A stretch of 64,000 nt of DNA, taken from a virus. The DNA lies in IMG/VR virus record IMGVR_UViG_3300030381_000254, positions 69,982 to 133,981 of that record. One strand, written 5' to 3'. The position numbers were made by a program, and so were the translations under genes. This document shows, piece after piece, positions 36,416 to 63,453 of the stretch (positions are counted from its first letter, which is position 1; every line of letters starts with the position of its first letter). The notes beneath the pieces are model-generated. The model was not told the DNA's origin, did no database searches, and saw only the letters and a list, made by a program, of their open reading frames with translations.

Positions 36416-36571
36416 TAATAAAAGAAAGAAAAAATTAGCACCGTTTTCACAAACAGTGCTAATCATAATTTGATAATATCGAACTTAATTGCTTTAGACG
36501 ACAATTTTACTAATTGTCTTTAACTATGTCCATTTATAAGGATTTTAAGGGTTTTAAATTATAATAGTTTA

Positions 36572-36590
36572 TAATCCTTATAAATGATAA
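36572..36590 (+). promoter_or_regulatory. Promoter-like motif variant
   Basis: taatccttataaatgataat lies upstream of the gene at 36607. Confidence 0.35.
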
Positions 36591-36606: not shown

Positions 36607-36993
36607 ATGTTAAGAGAATTAAATAAAATTGAATTTGTTAAGATTGGATATTATATAAATGTTCTTTCTTCTTCTACAAATAATGTAGAATATGGTGTTA
36701 ATGATTTTTCTAAACTTGAATTAGAAAAATTAAATTTAAGAGATTGTATCACTTTATTTCAAGTAGATGATAATAAAGTGAAGGTTTACTATAATAGTGA
36801 TATTGTTTTATTAAATCCATATAAACTAGATTTTAAGATTAGTAAAGATGATCCCAATAGTTTACTAGTATCATTATGTCTTGGATCAATATCTAATACT
36901 GTTAAAGTAGTTGATTCAATATTTTATGGAAAAGATATACAGAAAGTGTACGTAGATATTAAAGATGAGTCAATATTAATAATTCTAAAATAA
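36607..36993 (+). CDS. Hypothetical protein, paralog A, 128 aa
   Basis: It shares its start (ML+EL) and its C-terminal KVYVDIKDESILIILK with the adjacent ORF. Confidence 0.4.
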   Translation: MLRELNKIEFVKIGYYINVLSSSTNNVEYGVNDFSKLELEKLNLRDCITLFQVDDNKVKVYYNSDIVLLNPYKLDFKISKDDPNSLLVSLCLGSISNTVKVVDSIFYGKDIQKVYVDIKDESILIILK

Positions 36994-36995
36994 AT

Positions 36996-37364
36996 ATGTT
37001 AAAAGAGTTAACAGATATTAATCAAGAAATATCGGTTTCAGATTTTTCATCATTAATTTATGAGAGTAATAATAATGTAACTAGTGAGTTTAATAATACT
37101 AATTGGGAAATTTTTATTCTAGTTTTACAAGTTGGAGAGAATTCTATAAATATATTTATTAATGAAAAAGTTTTTAATGAAGTTAGGCACTCGTTTAGAA
37201 TATATACAGAGGTGTTTAATAATTCATTAGTATTAAGAACAAATATTAATAATATTTCTAGAATCTTTAAAATACATGATAAAATTTTTAATAAAAAAGA
37301 AGTAGATAAAGTTTATATAGATGAGAAAAATAGTTTATTATCAGTTAAATTAAGAAAATGTTAA
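36996..37364 (+). CDS. Hypothetical protein, paralog B, 122 aa
   Basis: Tandem paralog of 36607..36993. Its C-terminus is KVYIDEKNSLLSVKLRK. Confidence 0.4.
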   Translation: MLKELTDINQEISVSDFSSLIYESNNNVTSEFNNTNWEIFILVLQVGENSINIFINEKVFNEVRHSFRIYTEVFNNSLVLRTNINNISRIFKIHDKIFNKKEVDKVYIDEKNSLLSVKLRKC

Positions 37365-37367
37365 ATT

Positions 37368-38198
37368 ATGGTACATTTTGAAAAAATAAAGTTAACAAAA
37401 GGAATTTTTAAAGGAACTGAAGAGATAGAATTAGAAATTCCAGACATTAAATGGGTATTGTGGGATGGTGTTCCTCGTGGAGGAAAAAGAATTAATCATG
37501 TGAATTATTGGTCTATATTAAAAGTTTCAGATGAAGAAGAAGCAAAATATGTTAAGGATAAGTTAAAGAATATTAGAGCACATCAGATGTACTCATATGA
37601 ATTAATTAAAAATAAGATATGGGTTCTTGAATTAAATGATGTGGATAAGACGTATGATATACCACAAATGACAACAGCACATGATTTATACAGTACTTAT
37701 TTAAAAGATTTAGTATTTGTAGAATATACTAAGTATTTTAGGATATCTTCAGTTTTTAGAATAAAAGAAATAGATCATCCTGATTCTGTAACAGTACAAT
37801 CTGTAATATTGAATGGAAGATTTTGTTTTAATAGACCCTGTTATAATATTATGACTACTATTAATAATTGTCTTCCGAAAATGATAAATTTTTTAGGAAC
37901 AGGAGATATTTTTGTAGAAGTATTTAGTGGAAATATTGCAAATAAGTGGTGGTATTCTGCATTTAACAAAGCTATATTTAGTTATGATTTTGACCTAAAT
38001 TTTAATGAAGGAGATAATATAATTTGGGATGCTGATGTTCCAGATAGTTTTAATATTGATGATCTGTTAAGTTTATCTGTAGTTGATAAAAGTGAAGAAA
38101 ATGTTTCAGAAAAAGTAAAAGAGATTGAGAAAAGATTTAAAGAGTTTGAAGAAATCTTTTTAAAAATTTCTAAATTTAATGAACAATTTAAACAATAA
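37368..38198 (+). CDS. Hypothetical protein, 276 aa
   Basis: ORF only. Confidence 0.4.
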   Translation: MVHFEKIKLTKGIFKGTEEIELEIPDIKWVLWDGVPRGGKRINHVNYWSILKVSDEEEAKYVKDKLKNIRAHQMYSYELIKNKIWVLELNDVDKTYDIPQMTTAHDLYSTYLKDLVFVEYTKYFRISSVFRIKEIDHPDSVTVQSVILNGRFCFNRPCYNIMTTINNCLPKMINFLGTGDIFVEVFSGNIANKWWYSAFNKAIFSYDFDLNFNEGDNIIWDADVPDSFNIDDLLSLSVVDKSEENVSEKVKEIEKRFKEFEEIFLKISKFNEQFKQ

Positions 38199-38240
38199 TT
38201 ATGTTAAGGAGATAGAGATTTAATTTCTATCTCTTAATTT

Positions 38241-38266
38241 TCTTCAAATTTTTATATATGTATAAA
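38241..38266 (+). promoter_or_regulatory. Conserved phage promoter-like motif (variant)
   Basis: tcttcaaatttttatatatgtataaa lies about 270 nt upstream of groES. A terminator hairpin at 38384..38426 lies between the two. Confidence 0.4.
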
Positions 38267-38383
38267 TTTTAAATAACTATAATTATTATAGTAGTAATAA
38301 TGAAGAATGCTGAGATAGTGTAAAATTATTAAGAAGAGTATTATAGAGATATTGTACAAATTACATAGTTATGTGGATAAGGG

Positions 38384-38426
38384 ATAGAAGAGAACTAGTT
38401 CTCTTCTATTTATTATTTTGCTTTTT
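38384..38426 (+). terminator. Rho-independent terminator in GroES upstream region
   Basis: Hairpin atagaagagaactagttctcttctat followed by a T-rich tract. Confidence 0.6.
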
Positions 38427-38534
38427 AAAACCCTAAATAATCTTAGTAATGAAGAAAGAGGAATAAAAACAGTCCTCAATCTCTTATAATTGTATAAAAA
38501 GTTTATTGTGTAACATTTAAAAATTTAAAAAGAA

Positions 38535-38812: not shown

Positions 38813-40438
38813 ATGGCAGAAGGAAAAAAAATTATTAAAGGAGCTGAATCACGTGAGAAAGTAATTAGTGGTGTTATCAAGATTGCAGATGCAGTAAAAA
38901 CAACTATTGGTCCCGCAGGAAAACATGTAGTAATTGCTAACAGTATGACTGGTCCTGAAATTTCTCGAGATGGTAGTATTGTTAGTAAATCTATATCTTT
39001 TAAAGATCAAGAAGAAAATATTGGAGCTCAGATTGTTCGTAAAGCAGCTGCAAGTACTGAAGATCAAGCTGGTGATTCAACCTCAACTACAGTAGCTCTC
39101 ATTGAAGAAATGGTGATTAAAGGTCAAAAAGCAATTCGTACTGGAGCTAATGTAAATGAAATTAAAGATGGTATGAAGAAAGCTCAGAAATGGGTTACTA
39201 ACTATATTGCTAAGAATTCTATTAAGGTAGATGGTGATCTTAATAAAATTCATAAGGTAGCAACAATTTCTGCTAACAATGATTCTACTATTGGAGATCT
39301 AATAGTATCATGTATGGAAAAAATCGGAACTGATGCAGAAATTCAAGCAGATTATTCTTCTGGTATTGATACGACTATTGATATTGTTCAAGGGTTTAAA
39401 CTTACTAAAGGATGGTCTAGTCCACAGTATGTAAATAGTCCGTCTGATGCAAAATGTGTAATGGAAAATCCATACATTATAGTAGTTGGAGAGAATATTA
39501 GTAATTTCAATCAGGTAGGTCCTATTATCGAACCTTTATGTAAAAGTGGTCGTCCTTTCTTGATTGTATGTAATGATATGTCTGATCAGGTAAATGGTAT
39601 TTTTATTCTTAATACTCTTCAAGGAAATATTCGTTGTTGTGTAGTTAAAGGAGTAGACTTTGGAGATAATAGAAAAAATATTATGGCGGATTTAGCTGTA
39701 TTTACTGGTGGAACATATTTGGATCCAGAAAATGGAATTTCAATCAATCAGGCTACATTAGAGGATTTTGGTACAGCAAATAAAGTTGTAGTATCTAGAG
39801 ATTCTTGTATTATCTATGAAGGAAATGGAGATAAGAGTATTATTAGTGAAAGAATTGAAACTTTGAAAAATCGAATTTCTGATCCTGACATTAGTGATTA
39901 CGATAAGAAGAAATATAGCTCTAGATTATCTCAATTAGCTGGGGGTATTGGATTAATTAAAGTTGGTTCTGCTAGTGAAATTGAAAGGGCAAATTTAAAA
40001 GCAACCGTTGAAGATGCTATTTTGGCATCTAAGAGTGCTTTGGCAGAAGGTTGTTCTCTCGGATCTGGATATACTTATTTCAAAGCATCACTTGAATTGG
40101 CTAAAGATAAGGAGTTCTGGAAAACATTGGTTGATGATGAGATTGAAGGAGCAAAAATTCTTCAAGAATCATTGCCAATTATTATGAAATCCGTAGTAGA
40201 AAATTGTGGAGTATCTCCTGATGTAGTATTAGAAAAGATTAAAACATCTAAACCTGGTGTAGGTTTCAATGCAAAAACAAAGAAGTATTGTAATCTTGAA
40301 GAAGAAGGTGTTTTAGATTCTTCTAAAGCATTAAGAGTAGCACTCGAAAATAGCGTATCTGCTGCATCTATGATATTATTGATTGATTGTACAGTTGTAG
40401 ATGAAGAAGATAAAAACGAAGATAATTTAATTAAATAA
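38813..40438 (+). CDS. groEL: Chaperonin GroEL-like, 541 aa
   Basis: The N-terminus KIIKGAESREKVISGV...TIGPAGKHVVIA...GDSTSTTVALIEE matches the GroEL ATP-binding motifs. It lacks the C-terminal GGM repeat. Confidence 0.8.
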   Translation: MAEGKKIIKGAESREKVISGVIKIADAVKTTIGPAGKHVVIANSMTGPEISRDGSIVSKSISFKDQEENIGAQIVRKAAASTEDQAGDSTSTTVALIEEMVIKGQKAIRTGANVNEIKDGMKKAQKWVTNYIAKNSIKVDGDLNKIHKVATISANNDSTIGDLIVSCMEKIGTDAEIQADYSSGIDTTIDIVQGFKLTKGWSSPQYVNSPSDAKCVMENPYIIVVGENISNFNQVGPIIEPLCKSGRPFLIVCNDMSDQVNGIFILNTLQGNIRCCVVKGVDFGDNRKNIMADLAVFTGGTYLDPENGISINQATLEDFGTANKVVVSRDSCIIYEGNGDKSIISERIETLKNRISDPDISDYDKKKYSSRLSQLAGGIGLIKVGSASEIERANLKATVEDAILASKSALAEGCSLGSGYTYFKASLELAKDKEFWKTLVDDEIEGAKILQESLPIIMKSVVENCGVSPDVVLEKIKTSKPGVGFNAKTKKYCNLEEEGVLDSSKALRVALENSVSAASMILLIDCTVVDEEDKNEDNLIK

Positions 40439-41067: not shown

Positions 41068-41148
41068 AATACCTTGATTTCCTGATATGTGAGATTAATT
41101 AGTAAATTAATCTTAATTTAAATATTACTAATAAATAAAATTTTAATT

Positions 41149-46816: not shown

Positions 46817-47872
46817 ATGGGAAAAGATAATCAAAAGAAATTACTAGCATTAGATTATGGATATAGTTCTCTGAAGACAAGTTTTTATGATGAAAACGGG
46901 GTTCTTCAATTTGAGAAATTTATAAGCGCAGCAGCTAAATTGGGAGGAAAAGATTTAGTAGAAGATCCTAATGATGATACTATATTTTGTTTAAATGGTG
47001 AGTATTATGTTTTAGGAACTCCGGCACTTAAAGTTCCTAGATCTTTATTATATAGATTAGAGACATATGAAGATATGAAAGCTACTTATCCTATTTGGCT
47101 TTCTTATTTATTGAAAAGATATGGCGGTGATAATTGGTTAGATAGATTTGATCATGTAATTCTAGGTTTATCTTTAGCATTTAGCGATAAAGCTTCAGAT
47201 TTATTAGATCATTTATATGAATCATTAAATATTACTAAAGATAATTTCTTTCTCTGTCTTCCTCAAGGATTAAGTTGTAAACTTGCTTATCAGCAATTTG
47301 GTTTGGATTTGAGAGAAGTATCTAAAAAGAATGATGTGAAAATGCGAAATTACTTAATAGTTGATGGAGGATTTTTAAGTATTGATGCTGCACAAGTTCT
47401 TGATGGAAAATCTTCTGCTGGTGCTGCTATAGGATTAGCTAATACTGGGGTTATCTGTATAGTATATAAAATTATAGATTATTTATTCCAGAATTTTGAG
47501 ATGAAGATGAGTGTAAAAGAAGGTCAGACTGTATTGGATAATAACGGCTTATTTACACGAAGAATGAGAGAATATGATATTTCAGATAAAGTAAAAGAAT
47601 TTACTAGAGAATATCTTATTAATGTAATTAAACTATTAGAAGAAAAGTTTAGTGAATCACTAGATTCCATTGAAGGAATATTAGTTTGCGGAGGTCTTGC
47701 TTATTTCTTTAATAAAATGAAAGATGATGAGATTTTAAATAAAGAAATAGAAAAACACTTTCCAAAATCATTTATTAAGTTAGGTGGAAATGGTAGTGAT
47801 AGTGAATTCTATAATTCAATCAGTTATCTTAAAATTGCGGAAAAATTAATCGATGAAGGTCGTTTAAATTAA
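46817..47872 (+). CDS. Actin-like ATPase (ParM/Alp family)
   Basis: Phosphate-1 is LALDYGYSSLKTSF. Phosphate-2 is IVDGGFLSIDAA. The adenosine/GG motif is ILVCGGLAYFF. At 351 aa it has ParM-like size. Confidence 0.6.
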   Translation: MGKDNQKKLLALDYGYSSLKTSFYDENGVLQFEKFISAAAKLGGKDLVEDPNDDTIFCLNGEYYVLGTPALKVPRSLLYRLETYEDMKATYPIWLSYLLKRYGGDNWLDRFDHVILGLSLAFSDKASDLLDHLYESLNITKDNFFLCLPQGLSCKLAYQQFGLDLREVSKKNDVKMRNYLIVDGGFLSIDAAQVLDGKSSAGAAIGLANTGVICIVYKIIDYLFQNFEMKMSVKEGQTVLDNNGLFTRRMREYDISDKVKEFTREYLINVIKLLEEKFSESLDSIEGILVCGGLAYFFNKMKDDEILNKEIEKHFPKSFIKLGGNGSDSEFYNSISYLKIAEKLIDEGRLN

Positions 47873-48498: not shown

Positions 48499-48502
48499 AT
48501 AA

Positions 48503-48537
48503 AAGAGAAAGGTATGAGTACCTTTCTCTTTTTTCTT
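48503..48537 (+). terminator. Rho-independent terminator
   Basis: Hairpin aagagaaaggtatgagtacctttctctt followed by ttttctt. Confidence 0.7.
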
Positions 48538-48538
48538 C

Positions 48539-48568
48539 CTTTTAAATCTTTATATATGAGAAAAATAA
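48539..48568 (+). promoter_or_regulatory. Conserved phage promoter-like motif
   Basis: ttttaaatctttatatatgagaaaaataa lies just upstream of the gene at 48580. Confidence 0.5.
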
Positions 48569-49738: not shown

Positions 49739-49863
49739 AAACCTTAAAAACCTTATAATTGAAAAGAATGATAATAAATCATAAGTGAATTTAGATTATA
49801 ATATCTACTTAAGTAATAAAGCTTAGGTAGATTTTTTTATTTACGTTAATAAAGATTATAAAA

Positions 49864-50340
49864 ATGGAAAAAAGTTTTTTTAAAAAATTTATGCTTGGAG
49901 TTACTTCAAGTACTTTAAGATTTACACTATGGATAGTGTATTCTCTTGGATGTTATAGAAGTATAACATCTACATTAAAATTGTATGAAGATTATACATT
50001 AAGTAAATTAAGAAAAGAAGAAAATTGCTTAAAAAATATATGCAACGTTACTGGCTTAGATTCAGAATATTTAGAGAAAATAGTAAGAGTCAGAACTTCA
50101 GCTATTATTATAAAAGCTTTGGAAATTTCTGGAGCTAAAGTTGAGATTATGTCGTCTCCAGAAAAAATAAAAAAAGTTATTGAAAATCATTTTGGTATTG
50201 AAATTCAAGTAAATGAAAACGGTTGTTATAAATACTCTAATCAATCTGGATTTAATTGGGGATTAGAGTGTAGTCAAGAAAACAAAAGGAGATTTGAGTT
50301 GTTTAATATCATAATGATTATTTTAGAATCAAGGGAGTAA
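49864..50340 (+). CDS. Hypothetical protein, 158 aa
   Basis: ORF followed by a terminator. Confidence 0.4.
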   Translation: MEKSFFKKFMLGVTSSTLRFTLWIVYSLGCYRSITSTLKLYEDYTLSKLRKEENCLKNICNVTGLDSEYLEKIVRVRTSAIIIKALEISGAKVEIMSSPEKIKKVIENHFGIEIQVNENGCYKYSNQSGFNWGLECSQENKRRFELFNIIMIILESRE

Positions 50341-50360
50341 TTCCCTTGATTTTTTTTATT
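50330..50360 (+). terminator. Rho-independent terminator
   Basis: Hairpin caagggagtaattcccttg followed by attttttttatt. Confidence 0.65.
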
Positions 50361-50412
50361 TAAAGAACATTTAAATCCTTATTAATGTATAACAAATATA
50401 AATTATAAATAT

Positions 50413-52103: not shown

Positions 52104-52122
52104 TTAATTACCGATTAATAAT

Positions 52123-52149
52123 CCTTTAAAGCCTTATATATGTAATAAA
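52123..52149 (+). promoter_or_regulatory. Conserved phage promoter-like motif (AAAGCCTTATATATG...)
   Basis: cctttaaagccttatatatgtaataaa lies about 30 nt upstream of the small ORF at 52177. Confidence 0.5.
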
Positions 52150-52396: not shown

Positions 52397-52596
52397 CTTA
52401 TCATTGAAAGCCTAATAATTGAATCATAGAAAAATAGTTATAGAAGTTTATAACTAATTTTTTATGATTTTTTATTTTCTGTAATGTAAAAAAGTGCAAT
52501 AAAATTCCCTTATTTCCTTATAAAAGAGAGGGTAAAGTTTTACCCTCTTTAATTATAATAAATAATACTTAAATTAATCAATTAAAAGACTAAAAA

Positions 52597-53694
52597 ATGG
52601 AAGACGAATTTTTGTTAGATGAAGAGGAAGACTTGGAAAACCAAGGATATCTCGGGCAAGACAATGACGATGATTCTGACAATAATGATGATTCTGGTAT
52701 TAGCCTTGAAGATGCGGAGGAAGCTAGAGAAAAGGTAGATGAATCACAGTATCAGGGTAAGATGACTAAAGATGAAATTTGGTTATCTACTGCATATGAT
52801 GATATCATTGCTGCTGGGAAAAAAGATACTAGTAATGCTATAGAAGATGCAGTAACTACTATAGTTCAAGCTAATCCAAAGCACACATCAATTACTACTA
52901 TTGGAAATATCATTAAAGATCTATTTCATAAGCAAGGTCACTCTAGAATGGTCAATTCACTCTATACACCTGATACTATGTTAAGAGGTGAAGATGTTGA
53001 TATTGATTTTAGAGATGAGGATGATTCTGGATTTAATAAAGCATATGCTGAGGAAGCCAGAAATCAAATTGCTAGATTTATAGATTTCTTAGCTAATAGA
53101 GATCTTTCTAAAGATTCTGTTGTATCTAGAAGAAGAAAGCAAAGACAAATTCCTGCTTTTATAATATTTCTATTTTCTTCTGGAATGTATGACTTGATAT
53201 TAGATTGTCCTACAATGCCAAAAGAATATGATACTCAGATTAAAGAAGCTTTAAGAAAGATAATGAAAGCTAAGTATGATATTGTAGAAGAACTAGCTAA
53301 GAAGTATGAAGAGATGGGAAGACAGCAAGTAGCGGATAGAGTAAGAAAATTACAATTATCCTGGTTTAATAAAGAACCAGCTGAAATTCGATCTTCTTCA
53401 GAGTATTCTGATCTAGATCTTACTTATGATGATGTATTAGTTTATCGAGAATACAGAGGAAGATTCACTAATACTTCTAGAGCTATTACACAAGATGTTA
53501 TTTCAGATTTAATTGAAGTAGTAGTAGATAAAGATTCTGGAATTTTTGAAAGATTAAAAGATAAAACGCGTTCTGATGCAATAGCAGATGTAAAGCAAGT
53601 TTATAAAGAATGGTCTAAAGAAAATTCTAATGATTCTGAACTGGCTACTAAGATTATTTGGAAAGATGTTTCAGAAATAGTTAAATCTAATTAA
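52597..53694 (+). CDS. Acidic protein upstream of RNAP operon, 365 aa
   Basis: The N-terminal ~60 aa are extremely acidic (DEEEDLENQG...DNDDDSDNNDD). Its position suggests a transcription-associated factor, but no motif was recognised. Confidence 0.4.
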   Translation: MEDEFLLDEEEDLENQGYLGQDNDDDSDNNDDSGISLEDAEEAREKVDESQYQGKMTKDEIWLSTAYDDIIAAGKKDTSNAIEDAVTTIVQANPKHTSITTIGNIIKDLFHKQGHSRMVNSLYTPDTMLRGEDVDIDFRDEDDSGFNKAYAEEARNQIARFIDFLANRDLSKDSVVSRRRKQRQIPAFIIFLFSSGMYDLILDCPTMPKEYDTQIKEALRKIMKAKYDIVEELAKKYEEMGRQQVADRVRKLQLSWFNKEPAEIRSSSEYSDLDLTYDDVLVYREYRGRFTNTSRAITQDVISDLIEVVVDKDSGIFERLKDKTRSDAIADVKQVYKEWSKENSNDSELATKIIWKDVSEIVKSN

Positions 53695-53710
53695 TTTTTA
53701 AATTTATTTT

Positions 53711-54843
53711 ATGTCAGTATCTCTTGAGTTACTAACCGATGAAGCAATCATCGATTATACTAAAAGTGATGGAAAGGATAGAGTTCTCTATAATCATAGA
53801 GACTTAGACTTAAAGTATAACGGTATACAACCTATTTCTGGTGGAGTATATGATGTTGAAATATTCGGATCTCCTATGGAAGATAGATGTATCTGTGGAA
53901 AAATTCGACAACCTTCTATGGAACCTTGTCCTAATTGTGGAGCTAGAGTATTTTCTAGAGAAGAGGGACTTAGAAGATTTGCCAGAATAGAATTACCTTT
54001 CTATTATTTGAATGATTTGCGTTTTGATATCTTTAAAGAATTATTTGAAGATATATTTAAAGAAAGCAAAATAGTTTTAGATTTCTTCGGGGATGATCTT
54101 AGAAGAAATGGTTATAGTGCGAGAGGAGCAAAGAAATTAGGTATTAAAGTATTCGATACCTGCCAGTTTGATTATAATCCTACTACAAAAGAGCTTAAGA
54201 TTTCTGAATTTATAGATGATGAATCTAAATGTTCTTATGAAGGACTTATGAAGATTATAGAAGAACATTTTCCTGGTCGTCTCGTAGAATATAAAAAGTT
54301 GATTAATAGGTATTACTTAGTACAGCCAGCTATGATGAGACCTTTTACCCTTGGTGTAAAAAACGGAAAAAAGATAATGGGATCTCATAAACTTAGTATC
54401 TGGTATTCTATTATAATTAGACTTTGTTGTGTAGAAGATACTAAATCTAATGACTTAAATTATGCGGAAGTAACTTCTAAATTTAAGACTCCAGGTGAGA
54501 AAGTTAGATATACAGCACTTCTAAGAGCACTTCTTAATACAGGTAAGAAAGAAGCTACGGCACTTCTTAATACGTCTAAGGAAAATTTAGCGCGTGATCT
54601 TTATTCAGTAAGAACAAAGAGTTCTGCTAGATGTCCAATCATTCCTAGTACTACACTAGCTATTGATGAAATTTCTATACCTATTCATATTGCATATGAA
54701 ATGTGTAGAGAAGGATTCTTAGACTATTTAATGAAAGAATTAAATTTTACTAAAGAAGAGGCTCTTAAAGCAACAAAAGAAGAGTATAATAATCCGGAAA
54801 CTTTAAAGATGTTTAAAGAATTTGCGGAAAAACAAATCGTACT
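53711..54843 (+). CDS. rpoC: RNA polymerase beta' subunit, exon 1 (N-terminal Zn-finger region to ...EKQIVL)
   Basis: CICGKIR...CPNCGARV matches the beta' N-terminal Cys4 zinc finger. The exon ends with U at 54843, which pairs with the intron IGS GGTACG at 54858..54863. Confidence 0.7.
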
Positions 54844-55728
54844 AGATTTTTCACTGGTACGTTAGGTGAAAATCCTGAAACAAATGTAAATTACGTTTGT
54901 TTAATTTTGTGTATTGCTGGAAATTAATTATAATTAATAATCAGCAGTTGAATCTATTATAAAAGCAGAATAATAAATATAAAAAGAAGAGCTTATGAAG
55001 ATATTTAGGATTAATTTATTTTCTACACTATCTTCTACAACTCCATGGAATCGATCTGAACATATGAAACAACTTCATGCTGAAGGAAGATATAAAGGAA
55101 CTTCTAAGATAGGGTTGTGGAATGTTAGCGAAGAAAAAAGACAAAGAATGGCTAATATACGATTAGCAAATTCTTTAAATAAAAATAGTAAAGGATATGG
55201 TAGTGAGTGGCATATGAGACTAGCTAACAGAACTTTACTGCATAATAAATTTCAAGGAGAACAGGGTTATTTATACTTTGTTAGATTTCCTATGAGTATC
55301 AAGGTTGGTTTTTCAAAAAATTGGGAAAGAAGACTGAATTATCAATTACCTAACTTGAATCATATCTTAGGTGGTAAAGTTATAGCAATCATATCAGGAC
55401 CAACAAATGATTTAGCCGATCTTGAATTTGATACATTTGTTAAATTTCAAAATTATACAAAATTATCAGAGGATGGAACTAGATATACTGAATTCTTAGA
55501 CTTATCAGTAAGAAAAGAAGTTTATGAGTTCTTAAAATCTAGAGTATCTGATAATAATGAGTTAGAATTTTTAATACAGAATCCGCTTTTATAATAAATT
55601 CAATTCAACGACTATGGACAAAACTAAGATTAGTGTTGTGATAACCTAGTTTTTGATAATATAGTCTTGCAGGATAGAGATATCCTGGTAAAGAATGATT
55701 ATAATGACGTAATATAATCATTCTACAG
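54844..55728 (+). mobile_element. Group I self-splicing intron 1 in rpoC (885 nt) carrying a homing-endonuclease ORF
   Basis: P element ATTGCTGGAAA is at 54913, Q element AATCAGCAG at 54938, R element TCAACGACTATGG at 55605 and S element GATAATATAGTCTT at 55655. R and S form the P7 pairing GACTAT/ATAGTC. A P9 hairpin lies at 55669..55687. There is a U at -1 and an omega G at 55728. Joining the exons gives QIVL|VNRQPSLHEY..., which aligns to E. coli HPVLLNRAPTLH. Confidence 0.75.
54995..55594 (+). CDS. Intron-encoded putative homing endonuclease (GIY-YIG-like motif)
   Basis: A free-standing ORF lies inside intron 1 between the Q and R elements. GYLYFVRF...IKVGFSKNWERRLNYQ resembles GIY-(10)-YIG-...R. 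Confidence 0.5.
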   Translation: MKIFRINLFSTLSSTTPWNRSEHMKQLHAEGRYKGTSKIGLWNVSEEKRQRMANIRLANSLNKNSKGYGSEWHMRLANRTLLHNKFQGEQGYLYFVRFPMSIKVGFSKNWERRLNYQLPNLNHILGGKVIAIISGPTNDLADLEFDTFVKFQNYTKLSEDGTRYTEFLDLSVRKEVYEFLKSRVSDNNELEFLIQNPLL

Positions 55729-56709
55729 AGTAAACCGTCAACCTTCATTACATGAGTATAGTACTTTTGCAATGAAGTTAAGAATTCATGAGGATTATAC
55801 AATACATTTTCCTATTCAAGTATGTGAACCATTAAATGCTGACTTTGATGGTGATACTGTATCAATACAGTTAGTTCCGCCTGAAGCAGCTGAAGAGACT
55901 TATGAAAGAATGAGTCCTAGATATGTTACAATTTATAAAAAGAATAATGAACCTATTTATAAATTTAATCACGAAACACTTAATGGTTTAGCAGTTGCGA
56001 CTGAATATTCATACTCTGATTTGGAAGAATTGAAAGATCCTAAATATTTTTATACTGATTATGTTCAGTTATTAAAGGATGTAGAAATAGAAAAGAAAAT
56101 CAAAGTTGGAACACCGATTGTATTTACAGGAAAAATAGGGAATGTAGATTATCAATCTAAAGTTACAAGTTATGGTAGACTTCGTATTTCTAAAATACTT
56201 GATGCTGATATAGATAAAATTGGTATATTTAGTAATGAGTTTGAACGTATTAGTGCTAAGAGTGCAGCTAAGTTAAGTCTTTATTTAAATCAATTCGAAG
56301 ATGGAGTTGAAAAGAGAAAAGCACTTACTAAATTTGCTCTTCGCGTAGTTAGCATGGCTGGAGTAGTAACGTTTGATTATAAAACACTGTATGCTGATTG
56401 TGATACGGAGACTTATAAGAGAATTTGTAACGTAGCAGATTCTAAAGAACTTACAGATAAACAGAAACTTTTGATAATGACTCAAGAATTTAAGAAATAT
56501 GAGGACGAAGTTTCTGCAAGTTTTAGTTCTGATTTGAAAAATGAACTTGATAGAGCAGCTCGTGTTAAATTATCATCTATTGTAGCAATGTCAATGCCAC
56601 AGTTTATAACTTCAGGAGTTGATGAAAAACCTGTAATTACTCGTGGAACATTGTTATCTGGTTACACAGAGAAAGATTATCAATTACATGCAATAGAAAA
56701 TCGAAGCTT
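55729..56709 (+). CDS. rpoC: RNA polymerase beta' subunit, exon 2 (catalytic NADFDGD region); 3' end approximate
   Basis: VNRQPSLHEYSTFAMKLRIHEDYTIHFPIQVCEPLNADFDGD aligns to E. coli NRAPTLHRLGIQAFEP...NADFDGD. A bridge-helix-like SGY motif lies near the end. The exon end was chosen at the U at 56709, 70 nt upstream of the P element, the same spacing as in intron 1. Confidence 0.6.
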
Positions 56710-57201
56710 ACAATCTATTAAAGTTAGTGGTGTTAAAATATTAAGCTCGAATATGGTAGCCCACTTAAAATAACAATTAAATGCTGGAAAGAATATGTAA
56801 ATATAAAATCAGCAACTTATATAATCTTTAAATCTATTTTATGGCGAGATTGGAAAAAGTTTTAGAAATTTTAAAAGTAATTGGAGGAATTGCTAAAACT
56901 ATGCTTTGTGGAATGGAAGAGTATAGAAGAATTCAAGAAACAAGAGCATATAGAGAAAATCAAAAGAAAAAAGTAAAATATTTACCAAAGCCAAAGAAAA
57001 GATATAAAAGAAATAAATAAGATCAACGACTATGTATTGTTAGATTAAACAAAGTTTAATCATGATATAGTCTAATCCTATGTGATAAACATAGGCAGGA
57101 TGGGATTTTAGGAAGCGCTTTTAATTTATATTATAGCCTAATATCCTTGAATGACCTTCGAGCGGATATTTAACTCGTCAAATATCTTTCCTTTTAAATA
57201 G
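56710..57201 (+). mobile_element. Group I intron 2 in rpoC (~490 nt), boundaries approximate
   Basis: P element AAATGCTGGAAAG is at 56779, Q element AAATCAGCAAC at 56806, R element ATCAACGACTATG at 57022 and S element CATGATATAGTCT at 57061. A P9 hairpin lies at 57076..57095. G at 57201 is the only omega-G candidate consistent with phase, given the in-frame stop at 57170. The intron contains a 59-aa Lys-rich ORF at 56841..57020. No canonical U.G P1 pairing was found, so the 5' splice site could instead be at 56718 or 56724. Confidence 0.55.
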
Positions 57202-58357
57202 CTACGTATATCATGAAGGAGAAGATACTGAAAATGATGGTCTTTTGATACCTAGATACAAAGCTTTAGGACGTACTGCACCTAATGGAAAAGTATATCC
57301 AGAAAAGCCATTAGTAAACGGTTCAGAAGATGATTTGGTACCAGTTAGATCAATCATTACAAAAAGAAAAGGTGACACTCATACGATTACTCCTGACCTT
57401 ATAGGAACTAAATTCAAATTTACTGATGGAGCAGCTATTGGTCTTTCTTTTGCAACATCCTTAACTGAGGGAACAACCCAAAGTGCATTAGGATTAAAAC
57501 ATGGAGGTCATGAACGTGTTTTACAAATGGACGGAATACTTAAAGCTCCTAAACAATGCGAATTTAGAGAAGAAGGAAGATGGATTTATTTAAAAGTTAG
57601 AGGTGGAGAATTAAAATATCCAAGACCTGATAACTGGGTAAGTGTAGGAAAAGAAAAGTTTGAAAAGGGAGATACTATAGGAACAGCATATAATACTACA
57701 TCTCCTATTTATAAACTTAATGCACTTATTAAATTGATGAGAGCAAAGGGATCTGATGGTACTAGATACTTTGAAAAAGATAATGTTATAGTTTCTGACT
57801 CATACTGTTATAAATCGGGGACGATTCATTACAAGGAGACTAAGGATGGTGATATAGAAGTATGGATTGGAGATATTCAATATGATTATAATCCAATGTG
57901 TATGTATTATTATCCTGATGGTACTGAAATAAAGAAATATCAAAGATTCTGCAGTGGAGTGGTTAATATGAATCACGTGATTCCAGGTATGAATAATAAT
58001 TTGAATGATATTTATTTAATTTTCAGAAATCAATTCTATACATTAACCGACGGAAAATTTGCATCTACTGGATTAACTGATTTACATTCAACTCAAGAAG
58101 AATTAGTAGAGTTATTGTTTACTGGTTTAACTGATATTATTGTAGATACTGATACTCAGAAAATTGAAGATATCCAATATTTGGGAACTCAATCTGGTGT
58201 ATTAAATAAGAAGTCATTCTATACAGTATTATCTTATGGTTATTCTAGTAGAGTAGTTAGTAGAGCCCTCAAGGGGGATTTAAATCTTAGTGGTGATGTT
58301 ATGACAGAAACTATATTAGGATTATTGTTAAATAATAAACTTGATGATAAAAAATAA
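57202..58357 (+). CDS. rpoC: RNA polymerase beta' subunit, exon 3 (trigger-loop region to C-terminus); 5' end approximate
   Basis: ...YVYHEGEDTENDG resembles E. coli VVTEDDCGTHEG. GAAIGLSFATSLTEGTTQSALGLKHGG aligns to [28 protein letters not shown]. The ORF caller placed the start at the TTG at 57245. Confidence 0.6.
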
Positions 58358-58665
58358 TGGGAACTATTAAATTTGAAATAGATCTTCCAGAATTTGAAAA
58401 AGAATTAAGTTTGAATTTAATTATTCGTAGAGATGGTGAGGTAATTTATAATACCTCATCCTCTTCTACAAATAACTCTTTTTCAAAAAATAATGGTAGA
58501 TTGGAAAATTCTGTAGAAAAAGTAGATAAAATAATTCCCCCTATCGTGGAAGGTAGTGGAAATTCATTATCTAATAATATAGGAAATAAGGTAAGAGAAC
58601 AATCTATTACATCAAAAACTCCTAAAGGAAGAGGAGGTAATTTGATGAATTTGACAGATATTTAA
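58357..58665 (+). CDS. Hypothetical protein between rpoC and rpoB, 102 aa
   Basis: ORF whose start overlaps the rpoC stop. Ser/Asn-rich. Confidence 0.35.
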   Translation: MGTIKFEIDLPEFEKELSLNLIIRRDGEVIYNTSSSSTNNSFSKNNGRLENSVEKVDKIIPPIVEGSGNSLSNNIGNKVREQSITSKTPKGRGGNLMNLTDI

Positions 58666-58686
58666 TAAAAAGAAGAGAATTTAATT

Positions 58687-59037
58687 ATGAACGATAATTA
58701 TTATAAAATTACTTTATCATATGAAATTCCATATAACGTCATAGATTCTCAAGATCCTAATGTAATACAGGCTAGAAATATACTTTACGAAAAATTAAAA
58801 GATAGTATTTATCCTAAATATGAGAAATTTTCAGTTAAACTTGTATTATATCAGTTAAAAGATACATTTAATTATTTAGTTACATATGAGGCTTTCTTTA
58901 GATCTTTAGATGGTAAACCTATGGAAGAATATGTAGAGGCTCGTGATCTAAAAGATAGTATTAAGAAAGAATTAGAAGATTTTTTTAATTCAGTAGATTG
59001 CGATTATAAGCAGTTAAATATTAAAACATTATTATAA
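58687..59037 (+). CDS. Hypothetical protein, 116 aa
   Basis: ORF whose stop overlaps the rpoB start. Confidence 0.35.
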   Translation: MNDNYYKITLSYEIPYNVIDSQDPNVIQARNILYEKLKDSIYPKYEKFSVKLVLYQLKDTFNYLVTYEAFFRSLDGKPMEEYVEARDLKDSIKKELEDFFNSVDCDYKQLNIKTLL

Positions 59038-62000
59038 TGAGTAATTTTAATCAATATTTTAGAAACACTGGAGTAAAAATAATGGTAGATAAGTTCTTCA
59101 GACAGAGTAATATAGATAAATATAATCCAGATAATAAAATTACTTCTTTGGATTATGAAATTATCGAAGAACCACCTCAGCCAGCTTCTTACTATATAGA
59201 AAATGGTTTGACTGCTACTCATAAAGTAAGAATTAATTATACCATTAATGAAGACGATGAACTAAAATATGCAGAATTTGAAGTACCTAAAGAAATAGAT
59301 GGAGCTTTTATTATAGAAGGAGCTTATCGTATTTCAACTAACAAAATGAATGCAGATTTTGACTGTCGTATTCGTATGTCAGGTACTGGAGAATATACAG
59401 TAAAATTCGATTATGATAGAACATATGATATAAATAAAAAGATTTTAAAGATAACTAGAATAAATCCAGATCTAGGAATTTCAGAAAAGGCTATGGATAT
59501 TCACTTTGATGATATCGATAAGACCTTAGAAACTGATAAAAAAGATATTCTTAAACTTACTGAAAGACAGTCTAAGAAATTGATGATTAAGTTGGACCTA
59601 GACTATAAACCGGAGTATATAACACAAAAGCTTATTCAAGATTGTATGGCTTTTGGAGACGATAGACTTAAGGATTTAATCATTGATAAAACTATAGAGT
59701 CTGTACCTAATGGATTTATGAAATATCTATTCAGAGATAATAATCGAAGAAACTATTATTCTGCTTGTAGAAGAATAAATTCATACTTTACTAAATATGG
59801 AAGAATACAGGATCAAGTTACTGCTATTACTACTTTATGTTTCAGATATTTTAAAGGAGCAAAAGATATCTCTACAGCAGAAACAGGAATTCAGGTTCCT
59901 CCTGGTGTAAACTCTATTAATCTAGAAGCAATCTCTAATAAAATTGTTATTCCAGATAGCATAGCATATAATACCACATTTAGTGATTTGATAGATATTG
60001 CTGATACACCTATTAATAATAATACTAATCTCCAGAATTCATTAACGGTTTCATGTCATATTACTGATGATGATATACTTTTTGATGTTTATGATAAAAA
60101 TTTTATGAGGATAACTATCCCTTACATCGATTATCTTAACCATAAAGTATGTGCATCTGAATTTGTAGATTACGAAACTAATACTATAAAACCTAATAAA
60201 GATGGACAAGTAGAAGTTAAGTATAGAATGAAACGTAGAATGGTTCCTGTAGAGGAGATAGAATTAATAGACCTACATCCTGACTATAGATTATCCGGAA
60301 CTACTAGAAGAATACCATTTGTAAATTATACTGATAGTGTTCGTATTAGTATGGGTACTTCTATGTTAAAACAAAGTATTCCATTAGTTAATGCAGAACG
60401 ACCATTAGTTGATACTGGTAGATCGGAAGAGTTAAAAGATAATATATTGAATGAGAAATTTCAATATCCAGAAGGAAAAGTAAAAGATATTACTGACGAT
60501 AAAGTAGTAATAGAGTTACCTGATGGAACTGAAACTGAAATATTAAGACGTACGGCTATTCAGAGTATAAATGATGTCGCTGTATTTACAGAGCCTAAAG
60601 TAAAGATTGGACAAAAAGTAAAACAAGGAGATATTATTACTGGAGCTGTAGGACATACACTAGATACTTATAAATCTGGAGTTAATGCATTAGTTCTTTT
60701 CCATGCATATCATGGATTAGTTAATGAGGATGCTTTGGTTATTTCAGAGTCTTTTGCAAATCGAATAGCATCTTATAGCATTATAGATTTAATGATTAAT
60801 GTTAAAAATATTAGTGCTATTAAGTGGATTGCTCCTATTGGAACTAAAGTTAAATCTAAAGATCCAGTAGTTACATTATATAAAGCAGTTCGTCTAGATG
60901 CTATAAATGCTGCTTTACAGGAAAAATTAGGAGGATTATTTGGAGAAGGAAGAGATTTAACCGAATATACTATTGAGGATCATCTAAAAGTACCTAATAA
61001 TATAGATGAAGCTTGGGTATCTGACGTTATGGTTCAAGAAATGAAGAATCCTAAAATTCCAAAATCTGTAAAAGCTCCTGATTACTCATTTGCGCATACT
61101 TCTCAAGATGTTATTAATGAGTATGAGAAAAATAAAGATAGAAAAGTAATTTATGATAAATTTCCAGAATATGTAGCAGCTGATACTTTAGATCCGATTA
61201 ATATGGATCCAGATGCATATAAAATTGTTTATACAGTTAGAATAAGACTGATTAAGAGAACAATAGGTATGATTGGATCTAAGATTACATCTAGATATGG
61301 AGGTAAAGGAGTAGTTAGCTGTGTAAAACCGGACGAACAGATGCCTATTATGGTAGATAAATTTGGAAATAAGACGAGAGTTGAAGTAGTAATGAATCCT
61401 TATTCAACTATTAATCGAAAAATTCCTAGTGTTCTTATGGAATTTGCTCTTGGAAATATTGCACATAGATTACATGATCTTGTAGATGAGTATAAGAAAA
61501 CAAAAACTGGACAGAAGAAAATTAAACCATTGTTAGAAAAATATTATCCAGGAAGATTTGACTCTATGACTATTGAAGAAATAATAGATCGTCATAATTC
61601 AAGTCCTATTGAAGAAATGTATTATTTTAATGTTGGTTGTTTTTCTACTAAATTCACACCAGAGTTAGTTAATGAATGGTCAGATGAATTAGGAGTAGAA
61701 TCTCAGAGTAAGATTCTAATGCCTGAAAATGAACTTACTGATCTCGATGAATTAAAGGAAAATTTAGATTCAGAAGAATACGAACAGGTGGTGAAAAATA
61801 TAACAGGTAAATTTATTGAAGTTGATAAGCCTCTAATGACTGGATATATGTGTTTAGAGGAGTTATATCATATACCTAGTTACTCTAATAAAGTTACCAC
61901 TAGTTTGTATGGAGTGGATGTAAATCCTAGAAGAGACGAACCTATATTAGGACGGGGAAGATATCGTTTAACTGGACAAAAGATTGATGAAATGAGTTTG

Positions 62001-62225
62001 TCAGTTCTTTTATCTAGAAATGCTAAGAAATTCATAGAAAGTACTCGTAAGGATACAGCTACTGAAGATAATCAGTTATTCTTGAATAATCTTCTTGGAT
62101 TAGGATTAACTGTGGTTGATGATAAAGGATTTAATCAAGGAGGTAGTTCTTTGAAGAAAGAATTAAATGATCTTAAAGTTAAATTCCGTCGTAAAAATAA
62201 TTTATTAAATTTGGGAGATAAATAA
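59037..62225 (+). CDS. rpoB: RNA polymerase beta subunit (compact, 1062 aa)
   Basis: MGTSMLKQSIPLVNAERPLV aligns to the beta motif NMQRQAVPL...PLV. GRGRYRLTGQKIDEMSLSVLLS aligns to GGQRFGEMEVWAL. Confidence 0.7.
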   Translation: MSNFNQYFRNTGVKIMVDKFFRQSNIDKYNPDNKITSLDYEIIEEPPQPASYYIENGLTATHKVRINYTINEDDELKYAEFEVPKEIDGAFIIEGAYRISTNKMNADFDCRIRMSGTGEYTVKFDYDRTYDINKKILKITRINPDLGISEKAMDIHFDDIDKTLETDKKDILKLTERQSKKLMIKLDLDYKPEYITQKLIQDCMAFGDDRLKDLIIDKTIESVPNGFMKYLFRDNNRRNYYSACRRINSYFTKYGRIQDQVTAITTLCFRYFKGAKDISTAETGIQVPPGVNSINLEAISNKIVIPDSIAYNTTFSDLIDIADTPINNNTNLQNSLTVSCHITDDDILFDVYDKNFMRITIPYIDYLNHKVCASEFVDYETNTIKPNKDGQVEVKYRMKRRMVPVEEIELIDLHPDYRLSGTTRRIPFVNYTDSVRISMGTSMLKQSIPLVNAERPLVDTGRSEELKDNILNEKFQYPEGKVKDITDDKVVIELPDGTETEILRRTAIQSINDVAVFTEPKVKIGQKVKQGDIITGAVGHTLDTYKSGVNALVLFHAYHGLVNEDALVISESFANRIASYSIIDLMINVKNISAIKWIAPIGTKVKSKDPVVTLYKAVRLDAINAALQEKLGGLFGEGRDLTEYTIEDHLKVPNNIDEAWVSDVMVQEMKNPKIPKSVKAPDYSFAHTSQDVINEYEKNKDRKVIYDKFPEYVAADTLDPINMDPDAYKIVYTVRIRLIKRTIGMIGSKITSRYGGKGVVSCVKPDEQMPIMVDKFGNKTRVEVVMNPYSTINRKIPSVLMEFALGNIAHRLHDLVDEYKKTKTGQKKIKPLLEKYYPGRFDSMTIEEIIDRHNSSPIEEMYYFNVGCFSTKFTPELVNEWSDELGVESQSKILMPENELTDLDELKENLDSEEYEQVVKNITGKFIEVDKPLMTGYMCLEELYHIPSYSNKVTTSLYGVDVNPRRDEPILGRGRYRLTGQKIDEMSLSVLLSRNAKKFIESTRKDTATEDNQLFLNNLLGLGLTVVDDKGFNQGGSSLKKELNDLKVKFRRKNNLLNLGDK

Positions 62226-62227
62226 TT

Positions 62228-62872
62228 ATGGAAAATAATAGTTGTTTAATGCTTAATTGCACACTTTATCTTCCTGTATCATTATCTTCCATATTTGATA
62301 AAGAAGATTTAAAAGATACAGGAATTGAAAATGAATCACATGTTACATTACTATATGCAGCTGGGAAAGAGATACCTAAAGATAATCTATTAAGTGATAT
62401 CGAAACAATTTTAGGAGATAGTGATTTTAGTTTTGATAATTTTATGGAATTCATTAAAAATGAAGAAACTGGAAAAACTGATAGAGTAATGAATTGTTTT
62501 GAACTAGGATCTTTTGAGAATGATAGCGATTATATAGTCCTAAAGATGAAACAAGAATGTAAAATATACTTTACATTAGGTCTTATTAATAAAGGACTTA
62601 GAGCTAAATATGGAGTATCATCAGAATACTCATATACACCTCATTTATCTTTAGCAGAGCTTAAACCAGGAACTGCAAGTAAGTATCTAAATAATCCAAA
62701 ATTAAATCTAATTTTAGGAGATAGTTTTGTATCATTTGAAGATTTAGTAATTTCATACGGTCCATCAAATACACCAGTAGATAGGGAAAGATATAATTTA
62801 ACAACATTTAATGTAGTTGATTATTTCTTTCATACTGAGAGAAATCGAAAAGAAAATATGGAATTAGATTAA
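62228..62872 (+). CDS. 2H phosphoesterase (LigT / cyclic phosphodiesterase-like)
   Basis: Two H-x-T/S motifs are present, SHVTLLYA and TPHLSLAE, with the spacing typical of the 2H superfamily. Confidence 0.6.
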   Translation: MENNSCLMLNCTLYLPVSLSSIFDKEDLKDTGIENESHVTLLYAAGKEIPKDNLLSDIETILGDSDFSFDNFMEFIKNEETGKTDRVMNCFELGSFENDSDYIVLKMKQECKIYFTLGLINKGLRAKYGVSSEYSYTPHLSLAELKPGTASKYLNNPKLNLILGDSFVSFEDLVISYGPSNTPVDRERYNLTTFNVVDYFFHTERNRKENMELD

Positions 62873-62904: not shown

Positions 62905-62940
62905 AGAGTAGTGAATTAATTCACTACTCTTTTCCTTTTA
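62905..62940 (+). terminator. Rho-independent terminator after 2H phosphoesterase gene
   Basis: Hairpin agagtagtgaattaattcactactct followed by tttcctttta. Confidence 0.65.
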
Positions 62941-62945
62941 TTATT

Positions 62946-62975
62946 CCTTCAAAGCCTTATATATGAGAAAATAAA
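62946..62975 (+). promoter_or_regulatory. Conserved phage promoter-like motif
   Basis: ccttcaaagccttatatatgagaaaataaa lies about 30 nt upstream of the gene at 63005. Confidence 0.5.
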
Positions 62976-63404: not shown

Positions 63405-63429
63405 CTTAAAAAGTACTCTAAAGAGACTT

Positions 63430-63453
63430 AATAATCTTATATATGGAGAGATA
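63430..63453 (+). promoter_or_regulatory. Conserved phage promoter-like motif (variant)
   Basis: taataatcttatatatggagagat lies upstream of the topoisomerase gene at 63535. Confidence 0.4.

Follow-up and report, generated by a model that had tools for sequence, protein, structure and literature searches.

Results and discussion

An oriented motif upstream of the genes of a large phage

In the stretch of viral DNA analysed here (64,000 nucleotides, positions 69,982 to 133,981 of IMG/VR record IMGVR_UViG_3300030381_000254; hereafter the window), a short sequence found at 52122-52142 recurs upstream of many genes, which raises the question of whether it is a promoter and, if so, which RNA polymerase (RNAP) reads it. 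The window has a G+C content of approximately 28% and its genes form two divergent arms, the minus arm and the plus arm. The recurrent sequence was found to be a strictly oriented motif of 21 bases with the consensus tCCTTnAAAgCCTTATAtATG, which precedes nearly every non-virion gene block of a Bacteroides-type jumbo phage of approximately 370 kb and of many related gut phages. Its position, orientation and conservation make it very probable that the motif is a promoter.

A 30-nt position matrix, iterated from 12 seeds, converged on 17 sites with scores of 19.9 to 34.0 bits, compared to 10.9 bits for the next position of the window (Table 1). In 50 dinucleotide shuffles, 0.02 hits above 19 bits were obtained, with a maximum of 19.6 bits. 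These scores are partly circular because the matrix was trained on the same hits. Location and orientation are independent of the training and hence not circular: all 17 strong sites were intergenic, in a window where intergenic DNA makes up 6.3% of the bases, and all 17 were co-oriented with the downstream gene. The final G of the motif was located 21-58 nt from the start codon at 12 of the 17 sites, within the 20-70 nt proposed when the motif was first noticed by a sequence-only reading, and 71-275 nt away at the other five. When up to three mismatches to the 21-mer were allowed, four matches were found compared to 0.02 expected. The 9-mer TTATAWATG alone was not over-represented in the AT-rich window (11 observed, 7.9 expected), and 10 of its 11 copies were intergenic and co-oriented. 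The plus arm has 19 intergenic regions that are 40 nt or longer, and 13 of them contained the motif; the six remaining regions contained only a terminator or were intron-like spacers inside the beta' gene.

The sequence-only reading had listed six near-identical copies, all of which were recovered (48538-48558, 52122-52142, 62945-62965, 63425-63445 and 38240-38260 on the plus strand, 36394-36414 on the minus strand). It had also listed four one-mismatch variants. Two of these carry exactly CTTATAAATGA (31211 and 36577), and the other two are more diverged, with CCTGATATGTG at 41071-41091 and CCTTATAATTG at 49741-49761. Seven further sites had been overlooked (32797-32817, 38472-38492, 50367-50387 and 52506-52526 on the plus strand; 921-941, 35818-35838 and 36531-36551 on the minus strand).

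Anatomy of the motif and the putative start site

A logo was built from 134 non-redundant intergenic sites of relatives. The consensus was c-CCTT-n-AAA-g-CCTTATA-t-ATG, with information limited to positions -20 to 0 and an abrupt fall after the G. The T at -1 and the G at 0 were each present in 132 of the 134 sites, and position -3 was T in 80 and A in 53. The two CCTT boxes were 9 bp apart, and this register did not vary among the 134 sites. Conservation had been thought to run on into GAGAAAA, but the sequence downstream of the G is only A-rich and C-poor; the conserved part reaches instead upstream, to the CCTT box at -19 to -16. Further upstream the sequence is T-rich and often consists of a terminator tail. 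No -35 or -33 element was present in the logo, and G was depleted at -34 to -21.

At four window sites (41071, 52506, 63425 and 35818 on the minus strand), fold prediction placed the beginning of an RNA hairpin exactly at the G. In relatives, the hairpin of the topoisomerase-like gene showed two compensatory pair changes (GAGAGAT/ATCTCTC compared to GGAAGAT/GTCTTCC), and a distant clade (L271) had a different hairpin at the same place before this gene. In front of the polymerase operon, three lineages had three different hairpins at the same position, and within one lineage an A-U pair replaced a G-C pair. Since such hairpins would be 5'-terminal only if the transcript began at or next to the G, this base is probably the start site, and transcription most likely begins at the invariant G or within a few bases of it. 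The start positions of hairpins were also tested globally, but this test was discarded because the promoter sequence itself took part in the pairing and confounded it.

Conservation across an uncultured clade of jumbo phages

When IMG/VR was scanned with the pattern CCTTNAAANCCTTATAWATG, more than 117 stretches matched. Almost all of them lay on contigs of low GC content, for the most part 200-400 kb long, and several matches on one contig were common. The loci of these matches were homologous to the window, with 50-92% protein identity. The matrix detected 427 sites above 17 bits in 976 kb of these loci. After deduplication, 149 unique contexts were left, of which 137 were intergenic compared to an intergenic fraction of 16.5% (with crude gene calls). 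Among the unique sites of relatives, 115 of 120 were co-oriented with the next gene, and the modal distance to the start codon was 20-29 nt. One IMG/VR match, on a 25-kb contig (L024), was dismissed as a chance match; it lay on the wrong strand.

The group whose beta subunit is 62% identical had a slightly shifted motif, CCCTARAWYCCTTATAnATG, which suggests that promoter and polymerase lineage drift together, though the hosts may be of different lineages as well. For the groups with 26-30% identical beta subunits, the available flanks were too short to judge the motif. The 40-nt consensus had no significant match in GenBank phages or PLSDB plasmids. The exact motif strings were absent from the relevant literature, and no published description of the motif was found in the searchable literature. 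The motif would be a further example of a known phenomenon, the phage-specific promoter consensus of an RNAP-encoding jumbo phage.

No near-identity match to 22 kb of the window was found in GenBank phages, and a protein search of GenBank phages returned only jumbo-phage beta subunits, 23-26% identical. Beta orthologues formed at least 120 clusters with 52-73% identity, on contigs of up to 404 kb. The contig CASEGV010000001.1 (370,971 bp), deposited as an uncultured 'Mycoplasmatota' bin, was 87-98% identical to the window at the DNA level and evidently represents a jumbo phage genome, complete or nearly so, that was mis-binned as a bacterium. Related phage contigs were binned with metagenome-assembled genomes of Bacteroidaceae from ruminants and humans. 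A Shine-Dalgarno-like sequence preceded 5 of the 69 window genes, a scarcity that is typical of Bacteroidota and fits this host phylum.

The recently described Jug phages are gut phages of 360-402 kb with Bacteroides and Phocaeicola hosts, an RpoC and the standard genetic code (Chen et al. 2026, PMC12880540). Their genomes carry approximately 18 short group I introns each, of approximately 206 nt, and Jug-type phages are reported to account for approximately 1.1% of human gut metagenome reads and to be transcriptionally very active; the word 'promoter' is absent from the description (PMC12880540). The large uncultured clade of the window matches the profile of the Jug phages, by published traits rather than by a Jug reference sequence. 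These traits are the nearest genome of 371 kb, orthologue contigs of up to 404 kb, intron-like interruptions, scant Shine-Dalgarno sequences and contigs binned with Bacteroidaceae.

Genomic context and host-type signals

Hairpins resembling intrinsic terminators were enriched in the window (17, compared to 3.7 in shuffles), and at seven sites the order was terminator, then motif (32797, 38240, 48538, 50367 and 62945; 921 and 36394 on the minus strand). The motif was also present at divergent junctions, namely at the junction of the two arms (31200-31220) and as a back-to-back pair at 36531-36551 on the minus strand and 36566-36586 on the plus strand. No upstream transcript can arrive at such junctions, where transcription must begin.

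In contrast to the motif, host-type signals were not enriched. Sigma-70-like sites numbered 133 in the window and 146 in shuffles, and the Bacteroidota -7 box TAnnTTTG was found upstream of genes four times compared to 3.5 expected. Pairs of -33 and -7 boxes were essentially absent, with one found compared to 0.1 expected, inside an intron-like spacer. At the sixth position of a -7-type box, 114 of the 134 logo sites had A where the host consensus has T. A k-mer search of motif-less upstream regions for a second promoter class gave nothing clean, the loci being too redundant. The promoter reading is strongly supported by position, strand, the order of terminator and motif, the divergent copies, conservation across the clade and the lack of host-type signals.

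The phage polymerase

The plus arm encodes a multisubunit RNAP with an unsplit beta-like subunit and a beta'-like gene in five pieces (Table 1). The beta subunit matched the non-virion beta of phage AR9 and no other place in the AR9 genome, and it was closer to bacterial beta than to that of AR9 (Thermus 8e-27, AR9 6e-15). Once the spacers are removed, beta' would comprise approximately 1345 residues. The four beta' spacers (54866-54994, 55595-55771, 56774-56840 and 57021-57244) are intron-like and lack the motif. In relatives (L002, L044, L099, L208 and L276) the spacers differ in number and position, as introns do, and both beta' and beta are interrupted at further places by 150-1200 nt. The spacers would fit the short group I introns reported for Jug phages, though Rfam gave no match across the whole window at the gathering threshold and none on 54700-57400 at E<=1. 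Two of the spacers share the self-complementary pair TCAACGACTATG...ATATAGTCT.

The first gene of the polymerase operon (52597) encodes a product with an all-helical predicted fold and no significant structural match. The product of 62228-62872, at the end of the operon, has homologues in the 2H phosphoesterase family. A 706-residue protein (33622-35742) was considered as a hidden polymerase and rejected, as it carries the helicase motifs DEFQ and SAT. No single-subunit RNAP domain was found among approximately 30 window proteins scanned against Pfam.

In each of the three lineages examined, a variant of the motif stood in front of the polymerase operon, so that a reader of the motif must exist before the operon is expressed. 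The RNAP-encoding jumbo phages studied all have an early-promoter motif that is conserved, can be detected computationally and is read by an injected virion RNAP (PMC7598289); in AR9 this motif is AAATATATATTAT-N6-G+1 (PMC5312081), and in phiKZ the virion polymerase drives expression of the non-virion polymerase subunits (PMC13282480). The phiKZ non-virion RNAP initiates at the G of TATG, which is all that its late promoters need (PMC7598289). Three candidate readers can be named for the motif: a virion polymerase distinct from the enzyme of the window, that enzyme itself carried in the phage particle, or the host core with an added factor.

An integrative element of Bacteroidaceae with the same motif

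A strict-pattern scan of GTDB, with one genome per species (185,579 species genomes), gave 94 stretches, which fell into three groups. Ten or so were on the 371-kb phage contig CASEGV010000001.1. Many were single matches in unrelated phyla, and those that were read sit inside coding-looking sequence. Approximately 25 were in assemblies of Bacteroidaceae, Bacteroides, Prevotella and Bacteroidales with 39-46% G+C (L130, L174, L140, L181, L188, L175, L153 and approximately 18 more), among them that of the isolate Bacteroides muris NM69_E16B, in which the contig is 12.4 kb long.

The Bacteroidaceae matches examined belong to one family of integrative elements without protein homology to the window. 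The motif of the element scored 22-31.6 bits, was often present in two copies approximately 270 nt apart, and had a hairpin and a T/C-rich tract upstream. It was followed by an A-rich leader, a hydrophobic protein of 54-57 residues, a DUF3871 protein (1.8e-96), a Sak annealing protein (9e-40) and an exonuclease-like open reading frame (ORF). A tyrosine integrase, a PDDEXK_2 protein and a DUF6169 protein were encoded near this operon. The divergent neighbour encodes an AAA_14-DUF4143 ATPase that matches the PADLOC candidate PDC-S01 (3e-59), and it has a canonical host TAtcTTTG box (read by eye), indicating that the motif is a distinct promoter class in the element too.

The earlier description of the motif as phage-specific has to be narrowed, as the same 21-mer is present at full strength in this unrelated element. 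Either the element borrows the transcription specificity of the phage, as a satellite or an infection sensor, or both rely on a factor that is not borne by the phage. We regard it as rather unlikely that the 21-mer is a dedicated promoter of the Jug-type polymerase copied by Bacteroidaceae elements in such a way that the DUF3871/annealing operon fires only on jumbo-phage infection. If this were true, the element would be a satellite or an infection-triggered island keyed to the transcription machinery of jumbo phages.

Which polymerase reads the motif

That the motif acts as a signal in RNA, such as a processing site or a 5'-end or translation element, and not as a DNA promoter is highly improbable. 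Its strand specificity, its intergenic location at a fixed short distance from the start codon and the hairpins that follow it would suit such a signal, but the motif usually lies downstream of intrinsic terminators, is found in back-to-back copies at divergent junctions, which a sense transcript would not cover, precedes short units without a sizeable ORF, and loses its conservation exactly where the putative transcript begins. Improbable as well, to a lesser degree, is a composite of operator and minimal promoter, in which a phage regulator, activating or repressing, would bind the upstream half CCTTnAAAgCC and only (T/A)ATG would be the polymerase signal. The two halves stand in a fixed register at all 134 sites and are conserved together across clades, and no DNA-binding regulator was identified. 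The proposal draws on the CCTT boxes, which at 9 bp apart resemble tandem half-sites, on the sufficiency of TATG at phiKZ late promoters (PMC7598289) and on variants that keep the upstream half while the core drifts (28794-28814 and relative L050), and it departs from the best explanation only in how recognition is divided.

The best explanation, to which we give about an even chance, is a phage early/middle promoter read through specificity supplied by the phage, most likely by a phage-encoded polymerase. The motif would then be the core promoter of the non-virion (early/middle) units, of approximately 21 bp from -20 to +1, and would consist of the two CCTT boxes, at their distance of 9 bp, then TTATAwAT and the invariant G. 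It would not be of the host sigma-A type, and its reader would be a phage-encoded multisubunit RNAP already present when the DNA enters the cell. A pre-existing polymerase is proposed because the sole polymerase operon seen in the window is non-virion-like and sits behind a variant of the motif. The sequence-only reading had likewise pointed to a phage-encoded RNAP. This agrees with the multisubunit RNAP of the window and with a motif ending in (T/A)ATG, as in phiKZ late promoters; the identity of the reader goes beyond the evidence, and no second set of polymerase genes was found in the loci reached. Several results weigh against a phage-encoded reader. A hidden Markov model of beta found no second beta gene in approximately 1 Mb of clade loci, only orthologues, and each clade contig was represented by a single beta among the 80 highest-ranking of 232 beta loci in IMG/VR, where a very divergent paralogue could rank lower. 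A virion polymerase in this clade is hypothetical. HMMER recovered many full-length beta homologues at 28-37% identity, none of them encoded in the clade loci, and a locus search with one such homologue (P0147) gave no match. The enzyme is more bacterial-like than the split phiKZ and AR9 enzymes, with its unsplit beta and beta' of approximately 1345 residues, which makes the need for a specificity factor plausible, and no sigma-like subunit was identified in the window. The 3' half of the motif has the TA-N4-TG skeleton in common with the host -7 box. Finally, the element has perfect copies of the motif and no polymerase gene was seen in its 8-kb stretches, which fits a host-borne reader equally well.

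A reader of that kind is possible, with a clearly lower probability. The host RNAP core would be directed to the motif by a sigma-like factor or activator from the phage (injected or made very early) or from the element, or by an alternative sigma of the host, and the phage polymerase would serve other genes, e.g. those of the virion. The motif of the element, which heads the DUF3871/Sak operon in approximately 25 Bacteroidaceae, Bacteroides and Prevotella assemblies, is the main reason for keeping this alternative. The examined Bacteroidaceae matches are all of one element family, however, whose neighbour gene uses the canonical TAtcTTTG box; matches outside Bacteroidota are single, those read lying in coding-looking sequence, and the strict pattern was found at no host core gene in the GTDB genomes. 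T4 late promoters (TATAAATA) are read by the host core with gp55, a precedent for a -10-only phage promoter that works. The skeleton shared with the host box TAnnTTTG, the position of the polymerase operon behind a motif variant and a phage beta nearer to bacterial beta than to that of AR9 point the same way, but there is no -33 element, 114 of 134 sites have A at box position 6, which is T in the host consensus, host-type boxes are not enriched, and no gene for a sigma-like factor was identified in the window.

Temporal class

The motif precedes genes of replication, transcription and chaperone function together with small genes without an assigned function, and these include the polymerase, topoisomerase, ligase-like and chaperonin genes. 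The 27-kb tail-fibre block has four intergenic gaps, each with a terminator and none with a strong site. The exceptions or near-exceptions on the minus strand are the strong site at 921-941, the conserved weak variant at 28794-28814 and a look-alike at 31161-31171. It is reasonable to assign the motif tentatively, from the genes that follow it, to an early/middle temporal class. The claim that the motif is absent from the structural arm holds in so far as no strong site lies within 1331-28716; it fails for the strong site at 921-941, just beyond the tail-fibre genes, and for the conserved weak variant. The temporal argument built on it was roughly right, with the reservations that only tail fibres are identifiable as structural, that one strong site and one conserved variant lie on the strand of the minus arm and that the polymerase operon carries a variant.

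Gene content, weaker variants and other features

Three large genes of the minus arm (1331-31115) encode tail fibres (2595-5324, 5379-8090 and 9549-17675), the last of them a protein of 2708 residues built of many repeat modules. Beyond these, no annotation could be assigned in the minus arm, and the tail-fibre genes are the only structural genes identifiable there. The plus arm encodes an SPFH/flotillin protein (Pfam Band_7; 31250-32758), a Cpn60/GroEL-type chaperonin (38813-40438), a ligase-like protein, an actin/ParM-like protein (46817-47872), a DHH phosphoesterase and a GyrB-like ATPase (63535 onward; HATPase_c weak). The SPFH/flotillin, GroEL-type chaperonin, actin/ParM-like and 2H-phosphoesterase-family proteins and the 2708-residue repeat tail fibre make an unusual cargo. 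No tRNAs were found in the window by ARAGORN.

A weaker form of the core, C(C/T)TAAwwAAT(T)G, recurs in the window at 52401-52421 on the plus strand and at 31161-31171 and 28794-28814 on the minus strand; a GAG/GGG hairpin often comes after it. The minus-strand copy at 31161-31171 is the core-only look-alike ACTTAATAATG, 46 nt before the first minus-arm gene. The weak variant CCCTTGAAAATCTAAATAATG (28794-28814), with a covarying hairpin, is also present in the relative L050. In relatives, the weaker core is found before the polymerase operon and, in some of them, before the helicase-like gene; it also stands before the AAA_5 ATPase gene and possibly before the first gene of the minus arm. This core may represent a second promoter class or a strength tier.

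Three units of 70-150 nt run from the motif to a terminator without a sizeable ORF (36433-36531 on the minus strand, 38260-38411 and 49761-49832 on the plus strand) and are candidate small RNAs or leader/attenuator transcripts. The leader of the 706-residue helicase-like gene (35743-35818, minus strand) is kept in relatives (L085, L003, L105 and others) as GGGARACTCCTATGTCTTCA ... AACTGGATTCTGTATT. The helicase-like family has several paralogues per genome; in L196 there were three matches at 36-44% identity.

In L050, a 2.4-kb insertion (7636-10094, corresponding to window 24385-24446) lies between the orthologues of 24447-24785 and 23992-24384. It contains its own genes and a copy of the motif in the opposite orientation, which suggests a mobile or moron-like cassette with its own promoter.

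Table 1. Probable promoter sites and RNA polymerase genes of the window
Feature	Position	Strand	Score (bits)	Sequence, context or matches
Promoter site	921-941	-	23.9	After terminator ~950-985(-); ~31 nt before ORF running off left window end
Weak variant CCCTTGAAAATCTAAATAATG with 5' hairpin	28794-28814	-	7.7	Upstream of AAA_5 ATPase gene 27190-28716(-)
Promoter site	31200-31220	+	28.9	Divergent junction of both arms; 30 nt before SPFH/flotillin gene 31250
Promoter site	32797-32817	+	24.0	Just after terminator 32761-32792; 40 nt before gene 32857
Promoter site	35818-35838	-	20.0	Before 706-residue helicase-like gene 33622-35742(-); hairpin from G; 76-nt leader conserved
Promoter site	36394-36414	-	32.7	Directly after terminator 36433-36464(-); 44 nt before 83-residue gene 36099-36350(-)
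Promoter site	36531-36551	-	30.7	Heads ~100-nt unit to terminator 36433-36464(-); back to back with 36566-36586(+)
Promoter site	36566-36586	+	22.0	21 nt before operon 36607-38198; divergent partner of 36531-36551(-)
Promoter site	38240-38260	+	20.4	After terminator 38207-38235; heads ~150-nt unit to terminator 38382-38411
Promoter site	38472-38492	+	19.9	43 nt before gene 38535, then GroEL-like gene 38813-40438 (Cpn60)
Promoter site	41071-41091	+	23.6	Diverged core CCTGATATGTG; hairpin from G; heads operon 41149 to ~47872 (ligase-like, actin-like genes)
Promoter site	48538-48558	+	22.5	After terminator 48501-48532; 22 nt before gene 48580
Promoter site	49741-49761	+	30.2	Then terminator-like hairpin 49803-49832, then gene 49864
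Promoter site	50367-50387	+	22.2	After terminator 50325-50353; 26 nt before gene 50413
Promoter site (the finding)	52122-52142	+	30.5	TCCTTTAAAGCCTTATATATG; G at 52142, 35 nt before small ORF at 52177
Promoter site, RNA polymerase operon (52597-62872)	52506-52526	+	26.3	Core variant CCTTATAAAAG; hairpin from G
beta'-like gene, five ORF pieces	53711-54865, 54995-55594, 55772-56773, 56841-57020, 57245-58357	+		N-terminus weak beta' match; Rpb1_2 weak
beta-like subunit, unsplit, 1062 residues	59037-62225	+		Pfam Rpb2_6 1.2e-17; PDB Thermus beta 8e-27, AR9 non-virion beta 6e-15
Promoter site, best match	62945-62965	+	34.0	TCCTTCAAAGCCTTATATATG; after terminator hairpin 62905-62932, 40 nt before gene 63005
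Promoter site, GyrB/topoisomerase-like gene (63535 onward)	63425-63445	+	20.7	Hairpin from G

Significance

A compact promoter consensus that holds across the clade would allow operon and temporal maps to be drawn for uncultured Jug-type phages, and it would provide a handle on whether a bacterial-like phage polymerase works alone or with a factor. The motif is also a possible orthogonal expression element for Bacteroides engineering. Moreover, through the host-resident element that shares it, one can test whether a jumbo phage is linked to what may be a satellite or a defence island.

Comparison with known promoter systems

The late promoters of P4, activated by P2 Ogr or P4 Delta, are satellite promoters that answer helper-phage factors. 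The Bacteroidaceae element resembles this arrangement in being a small host-resident integrative element with a helper-type promoter before one operon; its helper relationship, induction and satellite nature are conjectural. The promoters of T7, SP6 and T3 are contiguous from -17 to +1, with TATA and then G+1 and a purine-rich start. The motif has the same form, being contiguous over approximately 20 bp, AT-rich before the G and followed by a purine/A-rich initial transcribed region. The resemblance is one of form only, as no single-subunit RNAP gene was seen in the window. With the sigma-A promoters of Bacteroidota (-33 TTTG, -7 TAnnTTTG), the motif shares a fitting host phylum and the TA-N4-TG skeleton; in contrast to them, it has no -33 box, wAT replaces the TTT of the -7 box, and its upstream boxes have no counterpart.

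The late promoters of phiKZ (T-3 A T G+1), which the non-virion RNAP reads together with gp68, are similar in that the motif ends in (T/A)ATG with an invariant T and G, that hairpins begin at the G and that the window beta matches the non-virion beta of AR9. Unlike phiKZ late promoters, which have no upstream conservation and precede late genes, the motif has 20 conserved upstream positions and precedes non-virion genes; its conservation is strong from -20 to -4, and the tail-fibre block lacks strong sites. Compared to the early promoters read by the virion RNAP of jumbo phages, its sequence is unrelated, is not purely AT-rich and contains two C-rich boxes. Conservation ends at the invariant G and does not resume at a start beyond an N6 spacer, beta is unsplit, beta' is interrupted by intron-like spacers and not divided into separate subunits, and no virion polymerase genes were found in the loci reached. 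With these same early promoters, the motif shares an extended and highly conserved sequence that is over-represented upstream of non-structural operons, in a phage that encodes homologues of beta and beta' and keeps its non-virion-type polymerase genes behind the motif.

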